Source: a virus
Taxonomy: Duplodnaviria > Caudoviricetes
IMG/VR virus record: IMGVR_UViG_3300002597_000001
Location: 1 to 64,000 of that record
Strand: one strand, 5' to 3'
DNA: 64,000 nucleotides
Shown: piece after piece, positions 16,870 through 34,175 of the stretch
Layout of the letters: each line of letters opens with the position of its first letter
How positions within the stretch are numbered: position 1 is the stretch's first letter
Notes under the pieces: generated by a model
What the model was told of the DNA's origin: nothing
Database searches by the model: none
Seen by the model: the letters and a program-made list of their open reading frames with translations, nothing else
Program-made: the position numbers and the translations under genes

Positions 16870-17330
16870 TTTGGAATATATATAATAGCTTATGTTCCAA
16901 AATCGAACAGCTTGGCATATAATTTTTGTCTCATCTGCCTCCTTCCCGCAAGCACCCTCTGGCCTCAATTCTCTAATCTCGTCGCTCACTGAGCCCTCTC
17001 CTCGGGGGACATAGCTGCGCTCTGTTTTACCCCCTGCGGTGAACGCTCGCTCCTCGACTTCGCTCCCTGTGGTCGCTTGCCAACCCTCGCGGGTTGATAA
17101 GAGAACCGGTGCCATCCCCATCACGCAGCCCTGACGGACTGACGTGTGGGGCCCCAGTCACCTTTGCGGCGGGTGACTAGGCTACGCCAACGAGGATGCT
17201 TGCTCTATATATAGGCCGCATGAGATTTAATTCCCGAGAAAAAGCTTCGTCAAGGCTTCGCACGGAAGGAGGTGTCCTTCCGAAGCCCCGGCACTAACCA
17301 TGATCCGTCACTGAGCTGCTTCCTTGTACG
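16870..17330 (-). ncRNA. Candidate structured RNA / 5' leader (or ssDNA origin structure)
   Basis: GC-rich with no credible ORF, downstream of a consensus promoter. Long-range stem GCAGCUCAGUGACGGA/UCCGUCAGGGCUGC and several hairpins. Confidence 0.5.
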
Positions 17331-21445: not shown

Positions 21446-22280
21446 AGATGAAAATCGATTTGTGGTACAAGGGTGAAAAGATTGCCTATGCGGATTGCTG
21501 CTTCTACCCACATGACGGGGAGTATAGGGGCAACGTGTATAACGCAGATGGAATGGCAAACCGCAAACGAAGATATGAGGATAACCAGTGGAATTCTGAT
21601 CACATCTACGAAGCAATTTGGAACGTGATAGATGATTACAAAGAAGGCAAAGTCAATGAGAGAGGGGAGCGAATCGCAAAATGAAAACCATAAACGTGTT
21701 GGGCGATACCCAGAGAGAGCAGTGGCACAACGTAGTCAATATGCTTCGTCAGCTTGGCGGGGACATGACCCGCGAGGGCCGGTCTGCGCTCTGTGATGAA
21801 CTGGATCGGTACATTGATGCGGTCGAGGATGTGTTCGATGAAATGCGAAAGGAGAATACACATGAATAAGCGCAAGAGATCGGAACTCAAATCCATCATT
21901 GAAATCCTGGAGGATGCGAACTCCAGACTGGAAACCGTCAAGGACGAAGAACAGGAGGCCTTCGACAATCTGCCGGAGGGAATCCAGTACAGCGAGCGTG
22001 GCGAACAGATGGAGGAATACGTCAGCCAGATGGATGAAGCGTATGATTCCATTCAGGAAGCGATAGACACCCTAACCGAGATTGCGGAAACTTGAAAGGA
22101 GAATGCGGTATGGCATGGTTCACAGTGAAGTATCTGAAGACGATTCTGGCCGAGGAGGAAATCGAGGCCGACAGCGCGGAGGAAGCTGCGGAGCTTTGGG
22201 AATCCGAATCGTGGCGGCAGGATGATGATGACCTGTTTTTCATCGAAGACGAAGACGGAGATCAGTTCTTCTTAGACTGA
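21442..22280 (+). CDS. Four small hypothetical proteins (21442-21684, 21681-21869, 21862-22095, 22110-22280)
   Basis: Overlapping stops/starts, each with an RBS. Confidence 0.65.
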
Positions 22281-22321
22281 AAACTGAAAACCAAAACTGA
22301 ATTTGATAGGAGGAAATCACG

Positions 22322-25300
22322 ATGGAGCGAGTGATTTTTAGAACGGAGTACGACCCGTATATGAAAATGGAAAAGTATCTGGCTGTGTTCCCTGATGACC
22401 AGGCGTTTCCGGGAAGAATCGCTTATGTTCCGCTGTACTTCACGGGGCACGGCACAACATTTGAGTGCTATGACGAAATGGACTTGGATTACTACTACAG
22501 TGAAACCAAGATCGTACACAAGAACGACGAAATCGTAACGCGGCTTTTGAATTCGCTCCGAGACTTTTATGGGGATGAATTCCGGGCTGTGGAAAAGAGA
22601 TAATCAAATACGGATTTGAAAGGGGAAATCAATATGGGACGGATGACCATTCTGGAACGGGAATGCGAATGGCTACGCAAAAGAGCGTATCTAATTTGTT
22701 ACTCCAATGCCGACTGCAAAAAGGTGGACAAAATCATTGATGAAATTGCCGCCGGGAAGATCAACAAATCGAACTTGTATGACGAAATCAGGAAGATGAC
22801 ACGGCGAGTTACAAGCGACCATTCGATTAAGAGATGGCAGGTAATTGCTGAATGGTTCGACAGAGAACCGTGGATGATATGAAACGCCCATTTGGAAAGG
22901 AGATTCCTATGTACATGGATCGTGAAACCTATAACGAAATCATCGACATCATAGACGATGTCTTGAAGGCGGAGCACGAACGAGCTAACAGATTCATTGA
23001 ACTGAATCCGGCGTGGAAGGTGACTAGGCAACACGACGTGGATGTGTTCTATAATGCGGTGAGTGAGGTCGCAGACGAAATCAACAGGCGATTTCGCGTT
23101 GAATGAAACTTTAATTTGGAAAGGAGAATTCAAATCATGATCAACACGGATCTCTATAACAAAATCATCCGCAATGGAGGGACCTACGACACGAAGAAGT
23201 ACCGTTACAGAATTGATGACCGGGGCAGAGTGCTTCGGTGTAGGCTGGATTACCTAGACAGCCTGATGCCACTCCACTATGAGAGATGGCAACCGCACGA
23301 CAAAAAATATATGGATCTGTTTTGAAAGGAGAATTGAAAATGGATTACGGGTATATATTCCAAACAATTTGTGAGAACTTACCGCATGAACCTCAAGAGG
23401 GCAGAATTTGGACCCCCGACGAAGAAGAAATCCTTTGTCCAAATAAGGAGGCGGCGTATGCTATTTGTGATTTCCTTGGCGCGATGGCAGGGGAACCACA
23501 GATAGCAACGTGTGGGTATTACGATCCAGAGTATGATGCCAAACACGGACAAACAGACAGTCGAACCGGATTTTGGTATGTGAGTATGTGGTAAATGAAA
23601 CTTGGATTTGAACAACAAGGAGGAATTTGATTGGGTATTTTTATTAAAGGTCTGGAACTTCCCAAGAATGAGGATGGAACATTTGCCCATCTGCATGGCG
23701 ATATTCAAATTGCCTATGTTATGACGGTGTTTGCATATGATGATGGGCGTATTGAAGTACAACCTTGGAACTCTTCGCAATCAGAATATCGTTTTAAGGA
23801 GACATATCACGCCTTCGAGGTTAGCGATGTAACCAAACTTTAATTTGGAAAGGAAGTTGAGATATGAAAATCATCATTGACACACGTCCAGACGCGGACG
23901 GGAAATTCGTTTATGAAATTCGTAATGCTCGTGGAGGCATTGAGATTATGGGGCAGGGACGAACGATTGGGGAGGCCGCTAAAGAAGCAATAGTGGATTA
24001 CTATGATTGCTTCGCAGACGAGTTTGACACACCACTCAACCCATGTATGTACTAATAATACAAATCTGATTTTGGAGGTTCGACATATGGAAAAACACAA
24101 ATGGATTACAGGATTTCCTAAGATGTACCTGTTTGATATAAGCGCAGATGGAGGCAAAACATGGACGGCTCAGTGGCTTACCGAAGAGGAGGCCGACGAA
24201 CACCGGCGTGAACATGGATACATTCTGGAAGAACACGATGTGAAAAGGTTTCTTCTGACTATGGACGATATGTAAATAAAATGCGAATTTGGAAAGGAGT
24301 GTTGCAAAATGGTGGTGATGAAATTGGCGATGATCATTCTGTGCCTGTATGTTATCTTTAAGTGAAATCCAAACCCAACATCCAATACATATGGAAAGGA
24401 AAATGTAAAATGAAATTCTATCTGACTGACCTGAACAAGTACGTCGAGATCACGTGCCGCCCGTGGATTCCCGGCAGTGGTTACGGGCCGGATTGCTTCA
24501 GTGATCTGGAAGATAATCTTACGATTGACTACACGAAAGAGGAGGGCGGCGACGCCTGGATTATGCCAGCCGAGGACTATATGGAGATCGCCGAGTGGTG
24601 GGCAGAGGAAGTTCGCTGCATGAATGCCCATATTCAGGGTGAGATCTGCGACTACAGCGAATGCGACCCAAATGCGAACGAACTAATCCTGGATTACGAC
24701 CGTGTCTAAAATCCCTTTTATGGGACATTACATATGAGAGAATTTAAACGCAAAAGGATTTCAAAATACCAAAAACTGTGATATACTGAAACAAAAAGTG
24801 AAAGGAGAATTATTATGAATCGTTATAGCTACGAGGAACTGAGAAACGCCGCAAAGTCCGGCAAGAAAGCCGATATTAATGCGCTAGGCGAGTGGTTTTC
24901 CACTTATGGAACTGAATATTGGAATGGTGAATATTACGATGCGGACGGCATGGAGGTTTGGCCTGTCTACAAAGAAGTGAATGAAGATGAATTTGAGCTG
25001 GCCGGATACAGTCTGGATCGTCCTGAAGTGTGAGTGAACCATTAACAAGATTGAAGGGAGAATTATCATGGAGAATGCTTATTGGACGCTGGAAAGCTGG
25101 GGCGTAGATTACCCGCCCGAAAACGCCAACGAAATTATCGACGCCGCGAATGAGATGATTGATAAGTTTATGGCCGACAACCCAGACGCAGATGAACTTG
25201 AACTTGCAAACTACAGTGATACACTTTGGGATTATTACTGCACAAATAATAAACTGCCAGGATGACATGACACCGGAAGTCCAAAACTAAAATCGCCGCC

Positions 25301-25840
25301 CGGGTGGGGCGGCGTTCCAATATCAAATTTGAAAGGAGATTATATATGCATCTGATATTCGGTCTGCTATTACTGCTGTTTGCCGCTGTCTGTGCCAGCC
25401 TAGACAGCTTCACAAAGTGGAAGAAATCTGATAATTATCAGAAATCAAAGCGCCCCTGCGGTGCCGCCACGGAGTATATGATCGCTTGGGAATTGTATAA
25501 AAAGTACCGCGACCTCACGGAAAAGCCGGACTTCAGAGAGCGTGTTTTGTCTGAGCTGAATTCCTGGCCTGATGTGCGATCTAAAATCTCAAATCAGTAT
25601 TACCGGGACCCCGAACTCCTGATGGATTCCGTGATCACAGCCGCAGCCCGTCTGCGGACAGCCCAGCAGGGGAAAGCACCTGTCTGCCTGACCCATGGAA
25701 CATCGGCTGCATTCCCGATTCCAGACGGAAATGACTGGGCCGTGCAAGTTGGGCAGAACCCCATGACTTATATTTCTAGGCTCGGATTTGAACAGAGCCG
25801 CTATGATGAATATTTGGACATGGAAAGAAGATCTCAATAA
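22322..25840 (+). CDS. Array of small accessory genes (22322-22603, 22634-22882, 22879-23106, 23137-23325, 23340-23594, 23631-23843, 23864-24055, 24087-24275, 24410-24709, 24815-25033, 25068-25265, 25346-25840)
   Basis: Most have an AGGAG-type RBS; many are separated by AAA-N6-TTTG sites. Confidence 0.7.
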
Positions 25841-25883
25841 GGCCGACCGCCTAACTCTGGCGGTTTGCTTAATAAGAAATAAA

Positions 25884-25926
25884 TATCATCCGACCTATTG
25901 ACAGATTTTGAAATCCGTGTTATATT
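25884..25926 (+). promoter_or_regulatory. sigmaA promoter with upstream TCAT-N4-CCTAT box
   Basis: TTGACA 25898-17-TATATT; would drive the 26004 gene and the recombinase. Confidence 0.7.
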
Positions 25927-26003
25927 GCTGATAGAAAATCTAATCGAACCTACAAACGGAATCGCAAAACAAAAATGCATAATCCAAAGGAGGGCTTTTA
26001 CAT

Positions 26004-26351
26004 ATGAAAAACATTATCGTCCAGCAAACCTATTATACAATCCCCGAGCTTTACCGCATTGCCTCCGGTTCCAAAGCCCGCCGTGGTTTGGCCGGGTACA
26101 TGATCAAAACCGGCAGGGCGGATAACACTGTATTTGGCGGAGCCATGTATCTCCTATGCGGTCTGGAATCATTGGAGAAGAATGAACTCTACAATCTGGA
26201 CCGCCGGGAGAACGCCAAAACCAATAAGGAAATCATGTCTCTGGCAGAAACCGCTCTGGCTGGCGGTTTTCATGTGGACTTTGAGATCCCAGAGAGGGAA
26301 TGCAGACGGATGATTCAGACGCTTGACAAGCTTCCGCCACTGGAAGGCTGA
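26004..26351 (+). CDS. Hypothetical protein
   Basis: 115 aa, RBS AAGGAGG. Confidence 0.7.
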   Translation: MKNIIVQQTYYTIPELYRIASGSKARRGLAGYMIKTGRADNTVFGGAMYLLCGLESLEKNELYNLDRRENAKTNKEIMSLAETALAGGFHVDFEIPERECRRMIQTLDKLPPLEG

Positions 26352-26364
26352 AAGGAGAATTACT

Positions 26365-27303
26365 ATGACCAATGTCCTGTATCCCGATTTCAATTCCAAT
26401 TTCAAAATCAAAAACAGCGCCATGCAGGAACCCAATTTCAAAATCGTTTCCACCAAAATGGACGTAGAGCCGCTGGAATGGAAATCTCAGAAAGCTACCC
26501 CAATCAAGAGCAAGGACGACATTGCCATGGTCAGCAATTATCTGCTGGATCGCGGCCTCCGCGGAGACGAAAAGGCCATACGCAACAACCTGATGTTTGT
26601 GTGTGGGATCAACTTTGGCCTTCGATGCTCCGACCTGACCCAGCTTCGCTTCGGACACCTGCTTCGCCCGGACGGCAGCGTAAAGGATGCGATTTGGATC
26701 CGGGAGATCAAAACCGAGCGTAAGCGCGGGGCGAATGCAAAAACGGTTTTGGAGAGCGGCGAGATCAAATACAAGCTGAAGGACCCGAGGAAGGTGTTCG
26801 TCACGGATTCTGTCCGTCAGGCCCTGATGCTCTACTGTGCCGGGAGGGAAATCGATCTGAACGACTTCCTGTTTCCGGGACAAAAAGATGGAAAGCCATT
26901 GAGCTATGACGCGGTGTACGACATTTTTACAAAGCTATTAAGTTGGAATCGGAAAAAGAAAAAGCCCGGTGTCCTGGCGTCCAAACTCTCCCGCCCTGTG
27001 CATGCCAGCACCCATATGCTCCGCAAGACTTTCGCCTATCACTTCATTATGAGTGCCCCGGAACGAAATCGGGCGGTCGAATATCTTCAGATCTGCATGG
27101 GCCACTCCAGTCAGCTTACCACCCTGCGCTATGCCGGTATCACGGATGATGAGATTCAAGACGTGGTTCTGAATATGAATCTTGGCGGCGAAGCCATGGA
27201 TGTTCATACCTCGGAGATCCTTTCCGGCAAAAATGAAATCAACGAGGACGACGTGGTCTATCTGGAAGTGTTCGCGGATGACGATGACGAAGATGCTTGC
27301 TGA
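26365..27303 (+). CDS. Tyrosine recombinase (catalytically complete, short N-terminus)
   Basis: Arg in NFGLRCSDL, Lys in EIKT, HxxR in THMLRKTF, His and Tyr in MGHSSQLTTLRY. Confidence 0.92.
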   Translation: MTNVLYPDFNSNFKIKNSAMQEPNFKIVSTKMDVEPLEWKSQKATPIKSKDDIAMVSNYLLDRGLRGDEKAIRNNLMFVCGINFGLRCSDLTQLRFGHLLRPDGSVKDAIWIREIKTERKRGANAKTVLESGEIKYKLKDPRKVFVTDSVRQALMLYCAGREIDLNDFLFPGQKDGKPLSYDAVYDIFTKLLSWNRKKKKPGVLASKLSRPVHASTHMLRKTFAYHFIMSAPERNRAVEYLQICMGHSSQLTTLRYAGITDDEIQDVVLNMNLGGEAMDVHTSEILSGKNEINEDDVVYLEVFADDDDEDAC

Positions 27304-29394
27304 GGAGGTGCTTTGTGGTATTAACAAAAAACTTATGGGCATATCAGTCACCGTGGAAACTGTATGCCGAATTCAAATTCGGTTCTGGGTTTTACTTCTA
27401 CGGAGATTCCGAATCGGAATGTCTGCATGAAGCAGTGCTAATGCAGGACTTCCATGGTGACATCACCGCCCTCATATGGATCACGGACGATTACTATACC
27501 GACGGCCAGCACATTGTTCGGAAGAGGAGAGATGAAACATGAGTTCGGTCAAGATTATTACTTCAAAAAGACAGACAGATTTTGAGTACCGGGTTTCCCG
27601 GTTTCTCAATTCTGTTTTGGAATCATATGGCAAGATTCGCTCTATCCATTACAGCGCTGGGTGGAATGGGGCCGAAGGTATTTACACTGCGATGATCATT
27701 TATGAAGAGGAGGACCTCCATGGTGAATAAAACGAAAATCAAAAACCCGGACGATGCAGTTTGCGTTCTTGCTTTGGACCCACACACCCGCCTAAGTGTG
27801 ACATCTACGAGCTGCGACCGTAAGGATGCCGCTCATTACGCCAAGTACTACAGTTCCATTGGTTACCGCGTCAAAACTCTGGAGTACGGTGAGGAACTGG
27901 GCGCCTATCTGGAACGGGAATCCCGTGTCCGGCAAATGGAAATTCGAAATCTGAATTTGGCTATGGCGGAAGGAGGAATTTGACATGGCAAAACGCACAC
28001 TGCATGAATGGGGAACCGTAGATGGGAAGGACTGGGAGCTGTACAGGGAACGCGGACACTACTTTTTGTATGTGAACGGTGAGTTTTATTGCACATGTGA
28101 ATCGATTAGAGAGTTTAAAGAGGAACTGATCGGTCTGTCCGACTGCTAATTTGAAAGGAGATTATTTTATATGATTATTGAAAAAGATACTAAGATGCTG
28201 ATCCACAGCACCACTCGCGGCAAGTTCTATGCCAAAGCCCGCCGCACATTCTCTCTGGATGATGATATGTATCCTGTCATCATCACTGATCCGCTGGAAT
28301 CTCACGCTGTGAGGAATCAGGAGGCGGATCTCCGTGCCGAGATGTCCAAAATCGAATTGCTGGAGATGGAATTGGAAACAGATCCAGAATCCGAGCCTGT
28401 CGTGGACTGCGATGTGGTGACACAGCCCATGGCTGTGGAAATTGAACCGGAAGAGGAGATGCGTCCGTTCGTGGGAATCAAAATGGATTCCGGTAAATAA
28501 AATAGTTCTTTTATGGAGGTGTTGATTACTTGTCGGAAACATATGTACATTACGGCAGTCAAAAATATGACCCTGAGATATTCCAGCCAATACGCAACAT
28601 CAATTCATTCAGTAAACCTCATGGTGGCTTGTGGGCATCCAGAGATAACGCTGAGTATGGTTGGCGCGACTGGTGCAAAGACAATGATTACGGAACGATT
28701 GTAGAAGAGAATTCATTTCGGTTCATTGTTTCTGATACAGCCAATATCCTGTATCTAAAAACAGAAAACGACTTGCTTAACCTTCCATTGCAAAGAGATT
28801 CAAGACCGGCTTACCAGTGGTATTTTCCCGACTTTGAAAAGCTACTGGCCGATGGTATAGACGCTGTGGAGGTTATAGATATAGATCAACTTTATTACCC
28901 TTTATACGGATGGGACTGTGAAAGTATCGTGGTAATGAACCCGGATATTATAATCCCGTTGGAAAAATGAAGTTACTCTTTGATAGGGGAGATTTATTAT
29001 GAGTTCTATTCTTTTTAGGCCGACGTGTGAAAAGTGTGGGACTGTGATTTGGGATCACATTGACTGCAAGACATTTTCAGAAACGGTGGATCGTTTCAGC
29101 ACCCGTCATTATTGTATTGAGCCATATCAATGCATGGAATGTGGCGCAATTTTCGACAATGTTGTAATGCCAACGCGATTGCCTTTTGATAATTCCCGTC
29201 ACAATAACTTTTGGGAGGAAGTGTAAATGATACTCAAAATTATCGCAGCAATTGTAATTGCTTTGCAAATATGGGTCATGGGGCTTTTTGTAATCGGGTA
29301 TTCCAAGGATGACAATATCGCAGCCGCGTCTGCATACATTGTTGCTATTTGTGTCGTTGCTGTTCTGGGCGGCTACGCGATAATTGCGATGTAA
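27297..29394 (+). CDS. Small accessory genes (27297-27542, 27539-27730, 27720-27983, 28171-28500, 28530-28970, 28999-29226, and others)
   Basis: Co-oriented ORFs with RBSs. Confidence 0.6.
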
Positions 29395-29423
29395 ATGAAA
29401 TAAAACAGGACTTTGGCAAAAGA

Positions 29424-29446
29424 AATCCCTCCCCAAACGGGGAGGG
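29424..29446. terminator. Hairpin between convergent genes
   Basis: TCCCTCCCC-AAAC-GGGGAGGGA. Confidence 0.6.
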
Positions 29447-29454
29447 AGAGTCAT

Positions 29455-29772
29455 CTAAGAAGCCCACGCGAGCGACTCATTCTTTATGATGACCCAACTG
29501 AAATCATCCGCAAACACAACATTCGGGTCATCATCATTGTCGGCCTCTGCTTCTCTGGACTGCCGATCCTTGTGATCGCAATAGGCGTGGTCATAAACGA
29601 AATGACGAAGCTCGTGCCGTATGGCCTTCTCCTGTAAATGGAAATCGTATAGCGTATTGATGTAAATATCAGCTGTGCAGTCTATATTCCAGAAAATTGC
29701 TCCGGCTACGCCCATGTGCGGGAAATCGAGCATATTGATATAGTAGTCTACTCCAAGATAATACTTTTTCAA
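29455..29772 (-). CDS. ImmA/IrrE-like Zn metallopeptidase (anti-repressor)
   Basis: IYIN...IRHELRH (HExxH), E.EA; directly downstream of an XRE repressor. Confidence 0.75.
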   Translation of the reverse strand: MKKYYLGVDYYINMLDFPHMGVAGAIFWNIDCTADIYINTLYDFHLQEKAIRHELRHFVYDHAYCDHKDRQSREAEADNDDDPNVVFADDFSWVIIKNESLAWAS

Positions 29773-30137
29773 TGTCCATTTCTCCTTTGCTGCTCACGGA
29801 GAAAGTCCATCACCTCCATCAAATCATCATTTGAGATGTCGCGATTTGTGATGGACAGATGTACACCGCCAACCGTGATGGAATCCAGGATTTCATCAGG
29901 ATCCACGGTGGCAACTTCAGGCGAATCGGTATTCCCCAGCAAATAATCTACCGACACACCAAAATGAGAAGCCAACCTTTCAAGGTTTTCTCCGCGAGGA
30001 ACTGCAACACCGTTTGCCCAGCGGCCAACAACAGCATCGCTGATTCCCAGGTTTCTTGCAAGACGATACTTTGTCAAGCTTTCTTTTCGCATCAGTTCTT
30101 GAAGCCTTTCGTAAAATTGCATAATTTTCACTCCCAA
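29769..30137 (-). CDS. XRE-family HTH repressor (ImmR-like)
   Basis: LARNLGIS...RW.NG...P....L..LA..FGVSVDYLLG. Confidence 0.9.
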   Translation of the reverse strand: MGVKIMQFYERLQELMRKESLTKYRLARNLGISDAVVGRWANGVAVPRGENLERLASHFGVSVDYLLGNTDSPEVATVDPDEILDSITVGGVHLSITNRDISNDDLMEVMDFLREQQRRNGH

Positions 30138-30167
30138 ATTTGTGCATCTCCTCTAGTGCTGTAGGGC

Positions 30168-30196
30168 TTGACTACTAACTGAAAAGATGCTATTAT
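30168..30196 (+). promoter_or_regulatory. sigmaA promoter divergent from the repressor
   Basis: TTGACT-17-TATTAT. Confidence 0.6.
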
Positions 30197-30417
30197 ACTT
30201 TTGCGACGGTAGCAACATAAAAGACGGTAACATCTAATCGTAGGTTAGCATATTGGAGCGAGAATGTCAAGAACTTTTTGCAAGAGAATAATAACTATTT
30301 TAATGTACCATTACATGGACACAAATAGGAAAATCATTCCTGCACAGGAAAGTATTTTGCATGGAAAATATTCTTTCAGAATATTAAAATGTAACTATAT
30401 GGGAGGTATTACAGAAA

Positions 30418-30792
30418 ATGTTTCGAGTGATCATCGCTGGCGGGAGAGACTTCGACAACTACGATCTTCTAAAACGCAAAATGGATCACCTGTTATCAGA
30501 AACTGTGGAGCCGATTCAGGTTGTCTGCGGACAGGCCCGAGGGGCAGACAGTCTTGGACAACTCTACGCCAAAGAGCGTGGCTACGAAGTCCGTTATTAC
30601 CCAGCAAATTGGGATTATTATGGAAAGAAGGCTGGAATGCTGCGTAATGAACAGATGGCGCAGAATGCAGATGCCTTAGTTGCGTTTTGGGATGGCAAGA
30701 GTCGCGGCACGAAGAACATGATTGAGAATGCTGAGAAGTACAATCTTAAAATCCGCGTCATCAAATACGAAAGGAGGGCGATGCCATGTTAA
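30418..30792 (+). CDS. SLOG/YspA-like (DUF2493) protein
   Basis: IIAGGRDF, GQARGAD, AG.LRN..M, AFWDGKSRGT. Confidence 0.85.
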   Translation: MFRVIIAGGRDFDNYDLLKRKMDHLLSETVEPIQVVCGQARGADSLGQLYAKERGYEVRYYPANWDYYGKKAGMLRNEQMAQNADALVAFWDGKSRGTKNMIENAEKYNLKIRVIKYERRAMPC

Positions 30793-30967: not shown

Positions 30968-32273
30968 AGAGTCCGCGAAGTGAAGAAATGCCGCCGCACT
31001 CTCGTGACTTCAGTCATGAGTTAGGCGGCGAGGAGGTGAGAATATAAATAAGGCATTCAAATATCGAATCTATCCAAATCGAGAACAGGAAATCCTTATT
31101 CAGAAAACATTCGGATGCGTACGGTTTGTATACAATCACTTTTTAGCAGAGCGGATTCAATTATATGAGAAAACGAAAACGGGAACGACATTCTTTAAAC
31201 AGAACAAATCTCTTACTGATCTCAAGAAAGAATATGAGTGGCTTCAAGAGCCAGATAAGAATGCCCTCCAATGTGCGTTGCGAGATCTGAACCAAGCCTA
31301 TCAGAACTTCTTCCGCAGAGTGAAGCAAGGTGGCCCACCTGGGTTCCCGAGGTTCAAGAGCAAGAAGCATAGTAAGAAGTCTTATTCGACTGCTAATAAT
31401 AACGGCGATGGTATCAGGTTTGACGGCAACCGAATTCGATTGCCGAAATTGGGATTCGTCAAAGCAAAAATCAGCAGAACGATTCCAGACGGATACAGAA
31501 TTATTTCTGCGACGATCAGCCAAGAGCCGAGCGGGAAATATTATGCCTCGCTTCTGACCGAGTTTGAGTATGATCTGCCTGAGATTGAGTTGAATCCAGA
31601 CACCGCGCTTGGTTTAGACTACAGTTCACCGCATTTCTATGTGGATAGCAACGGAGTGATTGCCGATATGCCACACTTCTACCGGATTGCGGAGCAGAAG
31701 CTGGCAAGAGAACAGAGAAAGTTGTCTAAGATGGTCAAGGGTAGCAACAACTGGTACAAGCAAAAACGAAAAGTGGCTGTAGCGTATGAGAAAATTCGTA
31801 ATCAGCGGAAGGATTGGCAACACAAGTTGAGTACCAAACTAGCAGATGAACACGACATTATCTGTTTAGAAGATATCAATTTGCAAAACATGGCGCAGGG
31901 ATTACACCTTGCCAAAGCTACAAATGATAATGGATTCGGTCAGTTCCGAGAATTCCTCAAGTATAAGATGGCATGGCGTGGGAAGATGGTGGTCACGATA
32001 GACAAGTGGTTTCCATCCTCTAAGACCTGTCGTTACTGCGGATATGTGAATTCGGAATTGACTTTGGGAAATCGCGTTTGGACCTGTCCGAGTTGCGGAA
32101 ACGAAATTAACAGAGATCTGAACGCCGCAATCAATATAAGAGAGGCAGGATTAAATCTTGTATATGTATAACGAAACCAAGAACCGTGGGGACCACGGGG
32201 ATAGCCTGTCTGATACTTCGCGGGTTTCCGCGATTGAGCAGGAATCCCGTGACTTTAGTCATGGAAGGTTCAA
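30968..32273 (+). mobile_element. IS200/IS605-family TnpB-only element (IS1341-like)
   Basis: Similar subterminal hairpins at both ends (CGTGACTTCAGTCATG / CGTGACTTTAGTCATG); right end ...GGTTCAA; no tnpA. Confidence 0.85.
31044..32171 (+). CDS. tnpB: RNA-guided endonuclease TnpB
   Basis: N-terminal KAFKYRIYPN from an ATA start after GGAGGTG. RuvC LGLD, LEDI and RDLNAA; Zn ribbon CxxC...CxxC. Confidence 0.93.
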   Translation: MNKAFKYRIYPNREQEILIQKTFGCVRFVYNHFLAERIQLYEKTKTGTTFFKQNKSLTDLKKEYEWLQEPDKNALQCALRDLNQAYQNFFRRVKQGGPPGFPRFKSKKHSKKSYSTANNNGDGIRFDGNRIRLPKLGFVKAKISRTIPDGYRIISATISQEPSGKYYASLLTEFEYDLPEIELNPDTALGLDYSSPHFYVDSNGVIADMPHFYRIAEQKLAREQRKLSKMVKGSNNWYKQKRKVAVAYEKIRNQRKDWQHKLSTKLADEHDIICLEDINLQNMAQGLHLAKATNDNGFGQFREFLKYKMAWRGKMVVTIDKWFPSSKTCRYCGYVNSELTLGNRVWTCPSCGNEINRDLNAAINIREAGLNLVYV

Positions 32274-33186: not shown

Positions 33187-33229
33187 CCTCATAGAGCCTG
33201 TTGACTGAACGTTGTACATATGATAGAAT
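33187..33229 (+). promoter_or_regulatory. sigmaA promoter with CTCAT-N4-CCT box
   Basis: TTGACT 33201-17-TAGAAT. Confidence 0.7.
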
Positions 33230-33251
33230 AATATGCATGGAGGTGCTTCAT

Positions 33252-34175
33252 ATGTACAACGAAGAAACCAAGGAGAAGTATCTGTCTGCCAAGGAAGCTG
33301 ACAATCACAAGGGCAGAAACCGTCAGACAGTCTTCTTTAACAAGATTGCGCCGTATGAGGAAAAGCTCGGCAAGGATCTTGGCCAGATGACCAAAGAGGA
33401 AATCATTGGTGGGCTCCAGTTTATCGGCAGCTCCTATTCTACGATTCAGGTACAGTCCGTATTTGCAAGGCAGTATCTCCTGTGGTATGACGAGGCGGTT
33501 GCTCCGGTCCGCAGAAGCACGACGGAGTTTTCGTGGGACGATGTGGACCTGACTGAAACCTATCGGCGTGATTACATCCGTGACATCACGCAGATTGGAG
33601 AGGATTGGAGCCAATGCGACCCCATCAACGGAGACTATATCCAGCCATATCTCGTCCTGATCTGGTATGGATTTGCACCGAAGGATTTTCTGAAGCTAAA
33701 GAAAACTGAAGTGGAAATCGGCAAAGATCGAGTGACGCTGACATTTGACGGGATACGCTATACAATCGAGGATTCTGTTGTAGCTCACACGCTGAGGGAT
33801 TATGATGCTTTTACAGAATACCGAGCGGAGAACTCCATGGTGACATGGCACAAGCCGGATACGGAGTTGTTCTTCTACAACAAAGTGTCCGAGGATAGCG
33901 TGAAGGTGAAGAAAACAGTCACCTCTATTGACGCTTCTAGTCGCCTCCAGTGGTATAAGAAGCATAGTATCTATGGTTCCGCTCGCCCTTATGATTACGC
34001 TTCTGTCAGATTGTCTGGGTTGTATCACAGGGTGATTGAACTGCAAGAGCAGGGCGCCACACAGAAAGAGATTGAAACGCTTATGGATTTCTATGGCGTG
34101 TCTAGCAAGAGCAAAGCTATGCGGGCTATCTTTCAGAAGTCGTTTGAGTCCTATCGGAAGGCATTCGGTCTATAA
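33252..34175 (+). CDS. MrpR/YopR-like repressor (degenerate tyrosine-recombinase fold)
   Basis: MYNEE.KEKYL...F....YEE.LGKDL...T.EE N-terminus, LIWYG, VRLSG; catalytic residues not evident. Confidence 0.6.
   Translation: MYNEETKEKYLSAKEADNHKGRNRQTVFFNKIAPYEEKLGKDLGQMTKEEIIGGLQFIGSSYSTIQVQSVFARQYLLWYDEAVAPVRRSTTEFSWDDVDLTETYRRDYIRDITQIGEDWSQCDPINGDYIQPYLVLIWYGFAPKDFLKLKKTEVEIGKDRVTLTFDGIRYTIEDSVVAHTLRDYDAFTEYRAENSMVTWHKPDTELFFYNKVSEDSVKVKKTVTSIDASSRLQWYKKHSIYGSARPYDYASVRLSGLYHRVIELQEQGATQKEIETLMDFYGVSSKSKAMRAIFQKSFESYRKAFGL

Follow-up and report, generated by a model that had tools for sequence, protein, structure and literature searches.

What does a short tyrosine recombinase do in a phage whose genome already encodes an integrase? 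The question is raised by a 312-aa protein encoded in the IMG/VR virus record IMGVR_UViG_3300002597_000001 (Duplodnaviria; Caudoviricetes). The source record is 108,778 bp long, and the part analysed here, referred to as the window, comprises its positions 1 to 64,000; coordinates are those of the window unless given as genome positions. An initial annotation, made from the letters of the window alone, had described the protein as a short recombinase with a complete catalytic set and had considered it the best candidate for acting on AAA-N6-TTTG, a short motif repeated across the window. Our analysis leads us to a different reading, to which we assign a probability of roughly 0.55: that this is a catalytically competent recombinase consisting only of the catalytic domain, that its reaction is a simple arm-less one at a dedicated site or on a DNA structure, and that it serves neither integration nor cassette exchange at AAA-N6-TTTG.

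The recombinase has an intact active site and is predicted to be a catalytic domain alone

The credible start of the recombinase gene is the ATG at 26365, positioned 7 nt after AAAGGAGA. In Pfam the protein matches PF00589 (Phage_integrase; E = 1.5e-10, residues 70-261, 41.6 bits against a cut-off of 27.1), and among the PHROG profiles it matches phrog_216, labelled 'integrase' (E = 2.5e-39), with residues 41-309 aligned to profile positions 48-282 of 301. When 5.8 billion proteins were searched, 72 relatives were retrieved, all of them 188-379 aa long and all with PF00589 only. In an alignment of 25 homologues (34-85% identity), R87, K116, H217, R220, H247 and Y256 are invariant (the numbers are true protein numbering; alignment numbering is one higher), which bears out the full R-K-HxxR-H-Y set claimed in the initial annotation. 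The persistence of an intact active site across such divergence points to selection on catalysis, beyond DNA binding. The 312-aa protein is a real and apparently active DNA-cutting recombinase.

The protein can be divided into ~45 variable N-terminal residues, an A-x-P-I-K cap, the catalytic domain and an acidic tail, with the A-x-P-I-K motif conserved directly ahead of the first catalytic-domain helix. The AlphaFold2 model (pLDDT 78, on the 25-homologue alignment) places the catalytic domain at residues ~51-272, with no secondary structure in residues 1-50 and a disordered acidic C-terminal tail. The best Foldseek matches of this model are Tn1549 Int, XerH, Cre and XerA, with E values of 4e-6 to 1e-4 for the first three. 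The active-site architecture is the same in all of them, but Cre, XerH/XerA and Tn1549 Int have an N-terminal core-binding domain that forms a C-clamp, which the window protein lacks. Going by the model, the recombinase is a catalytic domain alone, with both the core-binding and the arm-binding domain predicted to be absent. The initial annotation had also noted that neither domain is present, and on this the fold model agrees; its estimate that ~60 aa lie ahead of the first catalytic arginine was too low, as 86 residues precede Arg I and ~45 precede the catalytic domain.

Two more specific identities were considered and rejected. The NCBIfam Xer models (including XerA, XerC and XerD) score 15-42 bits against cut-offs of 220-335, and with these sub-cut-off scores and no core-binding domain the protein is not assigned to Xer. 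An identity as IntI would have only the XerA/integron model in its favour (42 against 220 bits), and AAA-N6-TTTG is at background in 29 homologue genomes, as described below.

A separate gene probably encodes the prophage integrase

The genome holds two further PF00589 genes (Table 1). One encodes the probable prophage integrase, a 405-aa Tn916-type protein with an arm-binding domain in addition to the catalytic domain; the other encodes a 337-aa Xer-like protein and adjoins a tail-fibre-like gene. A search of the genome for serine recombinases found none. Since a separate Tn916-type integrase is encoded, the 312-aa recombinase is not the integrase, as the initial annotation had anticipated. 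Its remark that no att/host junction is present was likewise upheld, with phage genes continuing on either side of the locus. The 'direct terminal repeat' of the record is only 30 bp long (genome 1-30 and 108749-108778); this end repeat is an assembly overlap and no true phage terminal repeat, and so the contig is circular.

The recombinase belongs to a large family of apparently single-domain phage proteins

To define the family, 1.84 billion cluster representatives were searched with a profile, which returned 819 clusters when E was at most 1e-30 and 5216 when the limit was relaxed to 1e-10. Nearly all family members are 180-330 aa long, and of the 150 top-scoring cluster representatives nearly all measure 185-350 aa. 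The 80 homologues from IMG/VR measure 179-326 aa and fall into two size classes. The shortest members, as in phiCD146 (214 aa) and the pneumococcal phage IPP67 (188 aa), begin at an E-P-I-K/R cap and keep the six catalytic residues, while a Pfam scan of the longest members and of two fusions of more than 1100 aa found nothing besides PF00589. By these profile matches, the family as a whole appears to have no core-binding or arm-binding domain, as in the protein studied here.

The PHROG 216 members of the two small phages (phiCD146 PHICD146_20051 and IPP67_00030) align with the window protein over the whole catalytic domain, with the six catalytic residues and an E/A-P-I-K/R cap in common. PHROG 216 relatives also coexist with other recombinase genes in one genome, including those of pneumococcal phages. 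Unlike the phiCD146 and IPP67 proteins, the window protein has an extra ~45-aa N-terminus, a long beta-hairpin insertion and the acidic C-terminal tail, and its gene is found in a 109-kb SPbeta-like phage and not beside HNH and terminase genes. The more distant members come from temperate phages of 33-66 kb without MrpR, the SPbeta repressor described below, and in the two annotated examples the gene ends the early gene block, following a transcriptional regulator in phiCD146 and preceding an HNH endonuclease gene and terminase in IPP67. The clade is a very large group of 'second' recombinases of Firmicutes phages, found both in small temperate siphophages and in SPbeta-like giant temperate phages.

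The position of the gene in the small phages, between early genes and HNH/terminase, is the usual position of a resolvase, which brings in another explanation: a structure-specific enzyme with low sequence specificity, either a Holliday-junction resolvase or a type-IB-like topoisomerase, that debranches or relaxes replicating DNA prior to packaging. A build consisting only of the catalytic domain fits relaxed sequence reading, and junction resolution is established for tyrosine recombinases as well as for poxvirus topoisomerase IB. In other phages the debranching role is filled by RusA, RuvC or RecU; searches for these three in this genome gave no match, and RusA occurs in 2 of 50 homologue records. 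The rarity of RusA is only suggestive, however, because there is no baseline from phages without the recombinase and the resolvase search covered RusA, RuvC and RecU, and the HxxR-H-Y motif is of the recombinase type and not of the topoisomerase type. We hold such an enzyme to be unlikely.

The distribution and anatomy of AAA-N6-TTTG do not fit recombination sites

AAA-N6-TTTG occurs 47 times in the window against 15.7 expected, and is found at many junctions between small accessory genes. A 42-nt intergenic block at 22279-22319 is 88% identical to L006:3055-3096, part of a related recombinase locus, and carries one AAA-N6-TTTG site, with adjoining genes that have no nucleotide similarity; the block may be a mosaic boundary sequence.

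If the recombinase recognised AAA-N6-TTTG and exchanged gene cassettes in the manner of an integron, one could understand the enrichment of the motif at small-gene junctions, the location of the recombinase gene inside the site-bearing region, the strong mosaicism of these genomes and the sharing of the 42-nt junction block with L006 while the flanking genes differ. The distribution of the motif argues otherwise. The form linked to a Shine-Dalgarno (SD) sequence has 12 forward-strand copies in this genome, against 0 for a reversed-pattern control, but stays at background (0-3 copies each) in 29 other recombinase-bearing phage records, of which 20 are rated at least 90% complete by CheckV, 14 of these being ~100-140 kb long. 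At the related locus L003, none of the 22 gene junctions carries the motif. L006 does have it at several gene junctions, in a mosaic early array that is partly homologous to that of the window, yet at only 36% identity its recombinase is no closer to the one studied here than are those of motif-free phages. The motif tracks the early-gene lineage and not the recombinase type. The initial annotation had itself named homologues in genomes lacking the sites as the observation that would count against its proposal, and such genomes are what the comparison of homologues and motif revealed.

The anatomy of the sites is a poor fit as well. Strand exchange by tyrosine recombinases requires spacers that match, whereas the 6-bp spacers here are all different; the arms are only 4-6 bp long, and a protein that lacks a core-binding domain is ill suited to reading such short sites. 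Furthermore, 17 of the 39 plus-strand sites are followed, after 0-7 nt, by an SD sequence and the start of an open reading frame (ORF) of at least 40 codons, and nine of the plus-strand sites overlap the stop codon that closes the ORF before them. The SD-linked sites are all located between 22.2 and 58.2 kb, at 22293-58159(+) of the window (for example, 22882, 23106, 24279, 42115 and 58147). Their fixed register to the SD sequence and start points to a role in gene expression, not recombination, and AAA-N6-TTTG, as an element of the translation-initiation region, resembles an operator of translation or transcription, comparable to T4 RegA sites or mycobacteriophage stoperators, more than it does a recombination site. 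The distribution of the motif largely refutes the link to cassette exchange, to which we give almost no credence, and the view of this recombinase as the best candidate for acting on the sites could not be sustained.

The recombinase is encoded near an MrpR-like repressor gene and is distinct from it

The phage encodes a 909-aa YonO-type RNA polymerase (PF05183 match) and a MazF/PemK toxin gene, followed by a gene for a 324-aa protein that matches MrpR_N_CB, the core-binding domain of MrpR. This gene content, the polymerase together with a pair of MazF and MrpR-like repressor, marks the phage as SPbeta-like, and a nucleotide search of the recombinase locus against 50,697 phage records gave no match. 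In SPbeta itself, MrpR (YopR, SroF) is a catalytically dead repressor with a recombinase fold that binds the repeated SPBRE element at ~ten promoters, and the operon yopMNOPQR encodes YopP, an integrase-domain protein (PMC10516654; PMC8612738; bioRxiv 10.1101/2025.11.27.690993).

The same association was seen in relatives of the recombinase. Look-ups of metagenomic homologues gave nine loci, all of them in YonO/MrpR-type phages, and in eight of the nine an MrpR_N_CB gene lies within ~8 kb of the recombinase. Two layouts can be distinguished: in type A, which is that of the window, the recombinase shares its strand with the MazF and MrpR-like pair and is located a few kb upstream of it, and in the three loci closest to the window a divergent helix-turn-helix (HTH) gene separates them; in type B the recombinase is directly upstream of yonV-yonO. 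At two loci, L004 and L010, the recombinase and a YonO-type gene are on the same strand with a gene for a YonV_C-domain protein between them, and 0.5-1.5 kb of non-coding DNA flanks the recombinase. More widely, 30 of 80 IMG/VR loci (among them loci of the series L015-L056) have a YonO-like gene that follows the recombinase at ~2-5 kb, and MrpR_N_CB is present in 32 of the 50 IMG/VR records with a recombinase homologue.

Given this proximity, the protein might itself regulate the lysis-lysogeny switch by binding DNA without catalysis, as MrpR/SroF does. Proteins with a recombinase fold have come to serve as repressors in phages like SPbeta (PMC10516654; bioRxiv 10.1101/2025.11.27.690993), the gene is near a MazF-MrpR-like module in the nearest relatives, and the two have a box-bearing promoter type in common. 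The likeness extends to the system as a whole, for the phage type is the same and the recombinase promoter carries the likely SPBRE analogue. Against a regulator stands the active site: MrpR is without crucial catalytic residues, whereas all six are invariant here down to ~30% identity, which argues for selection for catalysis. MrpR/SroF has two domains and reads a long operator with both, while the recombinase has one domain, is intact and is a different gene from the MrpR-like one. The recombinase also shows no similarity to YopR or to the MrpR-like protein of the window; matching neither MrpR_N_CB nor MrpR_C_cat and having intact catalytic residues, it was rejected as a member of the MrpR/SroF group. 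A regulatory role without catalysis is thus improbable, and an active enzyme remains the reading that we prefer.

The closest parallel in SPbeta is by position. YopP (SroD; the yopM-R operon is also sroA-F) and the window recombinase are both apparently intact, are not integrases and are encoded upstream of an MrpR-type repressor gene (PMC8612738). They differ in domain content, as YopP has a SAM-like core-binding domain (matches to PF02899 and PF13495) and the window protein has PF00589 only, and a direct comparison found no specific similarity (BLASTP E = 0.2; hhalign probability 0.5%). They differ also in operon structure: yopP shares an operon with YopQ and MrpR, whereas the MrpR-like gene of the window is ~6 kb further downstream in another operon with promoters of its own. 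The interval between them contains the divergent HTH gene, a TnpB gene and MazF, and no DndB/YopQ-like gene was seen there. On these comparisons, the recombinase is a positional counterpart of YopP but not a detectable orthologue of it.

In addition, the window contains at 29455-30137(-) an Xre-type HTH gene (PF01381), which overlaps a downstream 105-aa gene with an HExxH motif (HELRH). The pair resembles an ImmR/ImmA-type repressor and protease and is conserved in L002, L005 and L006, and the phage may thus carry two repressor systems, this one besides the MrpR-like protein.

The recombinase operon carries a boxed promoter and a gene of variable position

The promoter of the recombinase operon is strong, being the best match to a sigmaA-type promoter within 25000-30500, and is followed by a 115-aa gene and then by the recombinase (Table 1). 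L005, L002 and L006 have a homologous promoter ahead of their recombinase operon. The promoter is fused to a regulatory box, in agreement with the initial annotation, which had credited the recombinase with a boxed promoter of its own. Six exact copies of the box in the form TCAT-N4-CCTRTTGAC occur in the window, where 0.19 would be expected. Seven sigmaA-type promoters have the box in the form TCTCAT-N4-CCTAT fused to their -35, and three more copies stand alone at 17223(-), 34222 and 46778. By analogy with SPbeta, the repeated box is likely the SPBRE analogue, and a candidate operator to be bound by the MrpR-like protein.

The 115-aa gene is real and conserved, with copies 70-78% identical in relatives, but it is not a fixed partner of the recombinase, contrary to the initial annotation, which had called it a partner gene. 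In L005 it directly precedes the recombinase, in L002 it follows at a distance of 1 kb and in L006 and L007 at 2.1 kb, and it was not found in the recombinase flanks of L003, L004, L008, L009 and L010. Because a box-type promoter stands directly ahead of the recombinase in L002 and L006, the 115-aa gene looks as if inserted between promoter and recombinase. Its product has no match in Pfam, PHROG, NCBIfam or PADLOC and no usable match in the ESM Atlas, and is modelled as helical with a pLDDT of 79 in only one of five models and no Foldseek match. With its variable position and no family or fold match, the proposal that it acts as an accessory or directionality factor found no support. Nucleotide repeats that touch the gene (6621 and 35290) were dismissed as chance, as the proteins there are unrelated, one of them being a Sak annealing protein.

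Directly upstream of the operon is a gene for a 178-aa predicted membrane protein, whose homologues were found by tblastn as the upstream neighbour of the recombinase or its operon in L005, L006 and L007. None of the PADLOC defence models matched at the locus.

Table 1. Recombinase locus and other features of the phage genome (window coordinates unless marked as genome)
Feature	Position	Strand	Description
Tyrosine recombinase gene	26365-27303	+	312 aa; listed ORF 26323-27303
sigmaA-type promoter	25898-25926	+	TTGACA-17 nt-TATATT, extended -10 TG; 11/12 matches
Regulatory box TCAT-N4-CCTATTGAC	25886-25902	+	fused to -35 hexamer
115-aa gene, first of operon	26004-26351	+	own GGAGG; conserved in relatives
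178-aa predicted membrane protein gene	25304-25840	+	directly upstream; hydrophobic N-terminal segment in translation
TnpB/Cas12f-like gene	31278-32171		OrfB_IS605 and TNB domains; between HTH module and MazF-MrpR-like pair
MrpR-like gene	33201-34175		MrpR_N_CB match
Promoters with box	32747; 33189; 20879; 17360(-); 25886; 46723; genome 65097		MazF gene (32747); MrpR-like gene (33189); early array (20879); helicase leader (17360); recombinase operon (25886)
Tn916-type integrase gene	genome 66908-68125 (L011:2908-4125)		405 aa; Integrase_DNA arm-binding domain and catalytic domain
Xer-like tyrosine recombinase gene	genome 79935-80948 (L011:15935-16948)		337 aa; adjoins tail-fibre-like gene with Mtd_N (tropism determinant) match

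Proposed reaction and search for a target site

In the mechanism that we propose, the recombinase would be made early, under the control of the MrpR-type lysis-lysogeny circuit, and would cut and rejoin DNA through a 3'-phosphotyrosyl link at Tyr256. The reaction would be an arm-less one of the Cre/Xer/Fim type, at one dedicated site or on a DNA structure; it might, for example, resolve or cyclise replicating phage circles, or remove junctions before packaging. It would have no part in integration or in cassette exchange at AAA-N6-TTTG.

Several observations weigh against this proposal. No lox- or dif-like inverted repeat was found near the recombinase gene, no k-mer is common to the recombinase flanks across 19 lineages, and no inversions were seen among 25 related loci, each sample being represented by one assembly. 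As the protein has no core-binding domain, there is no obvious means of DNA clamping or synapsis, and the type of reaction is therefore a guess. The association with MrpR is incomplete, since MrpR_N_CB is absent from 18 of the 50 homologue records, and in several records the two genes are tens of kb apart. A literature search for catalytic-domain-only or 'second' phage recombinases found no published functional study of the clade.

Part of the same search bears on whether the protein could be an additional integrase, or an invertase of the Fim kind that works on a neighbouring DNA switch. FimB and FimE are of similar size, and 0.5-1.5 kb of non-coding DNA surrounds the gene in type-B relatives, beside yonV-yonO. 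Neither matches in inverted orientation among the 25 related loci nor conserved flanking inverted repeats were found, however; the gene is located inside a circular phage genome and hence has no att-like junction, and a canonical integrase is already encoded. Either role is very unlikely. The repeats in the large flanks of the type-B relatives, and the long repeats across the window, included nothing convincing as a recombination site.

A further possibility, which we consider improbable, is that the clade performs a reaction not yet described for tyrosine recombinases, for example one targeted in trans by an MrpR-type dead repressor, or by DNA structure. An enzyme targeted in this way would act on junctions or topology and would be wired into the lysis-lysogeny or early-late switch. 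Less likely still would be a version in which, in this lineage, the enzyme does act on the SD-linked AAA-N6-TTTG elements. In summary, the evidence is most consistent with a catalytically competent recombinase without arm- or core-binding domains that works on a dedicated site or DNA structure.

Implications for SPbeta-like phages and the PHROG 216 family

The gene adds to a kind that is already known, though functionally uncharacterised (PHROG 216, PF00589), in an SPbeta-like gut phage and apart from the true integrase, and the 'cassette array' finding of the initial annotation loses its proposed enzyme. PHROG 216 is a very large phage recombinase family with a perfect active site, yet without a domain for clamping and reading DNA, and phages of the SPbeta type repeatedly keep a recombinase that is predicted to be active beside a repressor with a recombinase fold. 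Knowing biochemically what a single member does would allow thousands of phage genes to be annotated.

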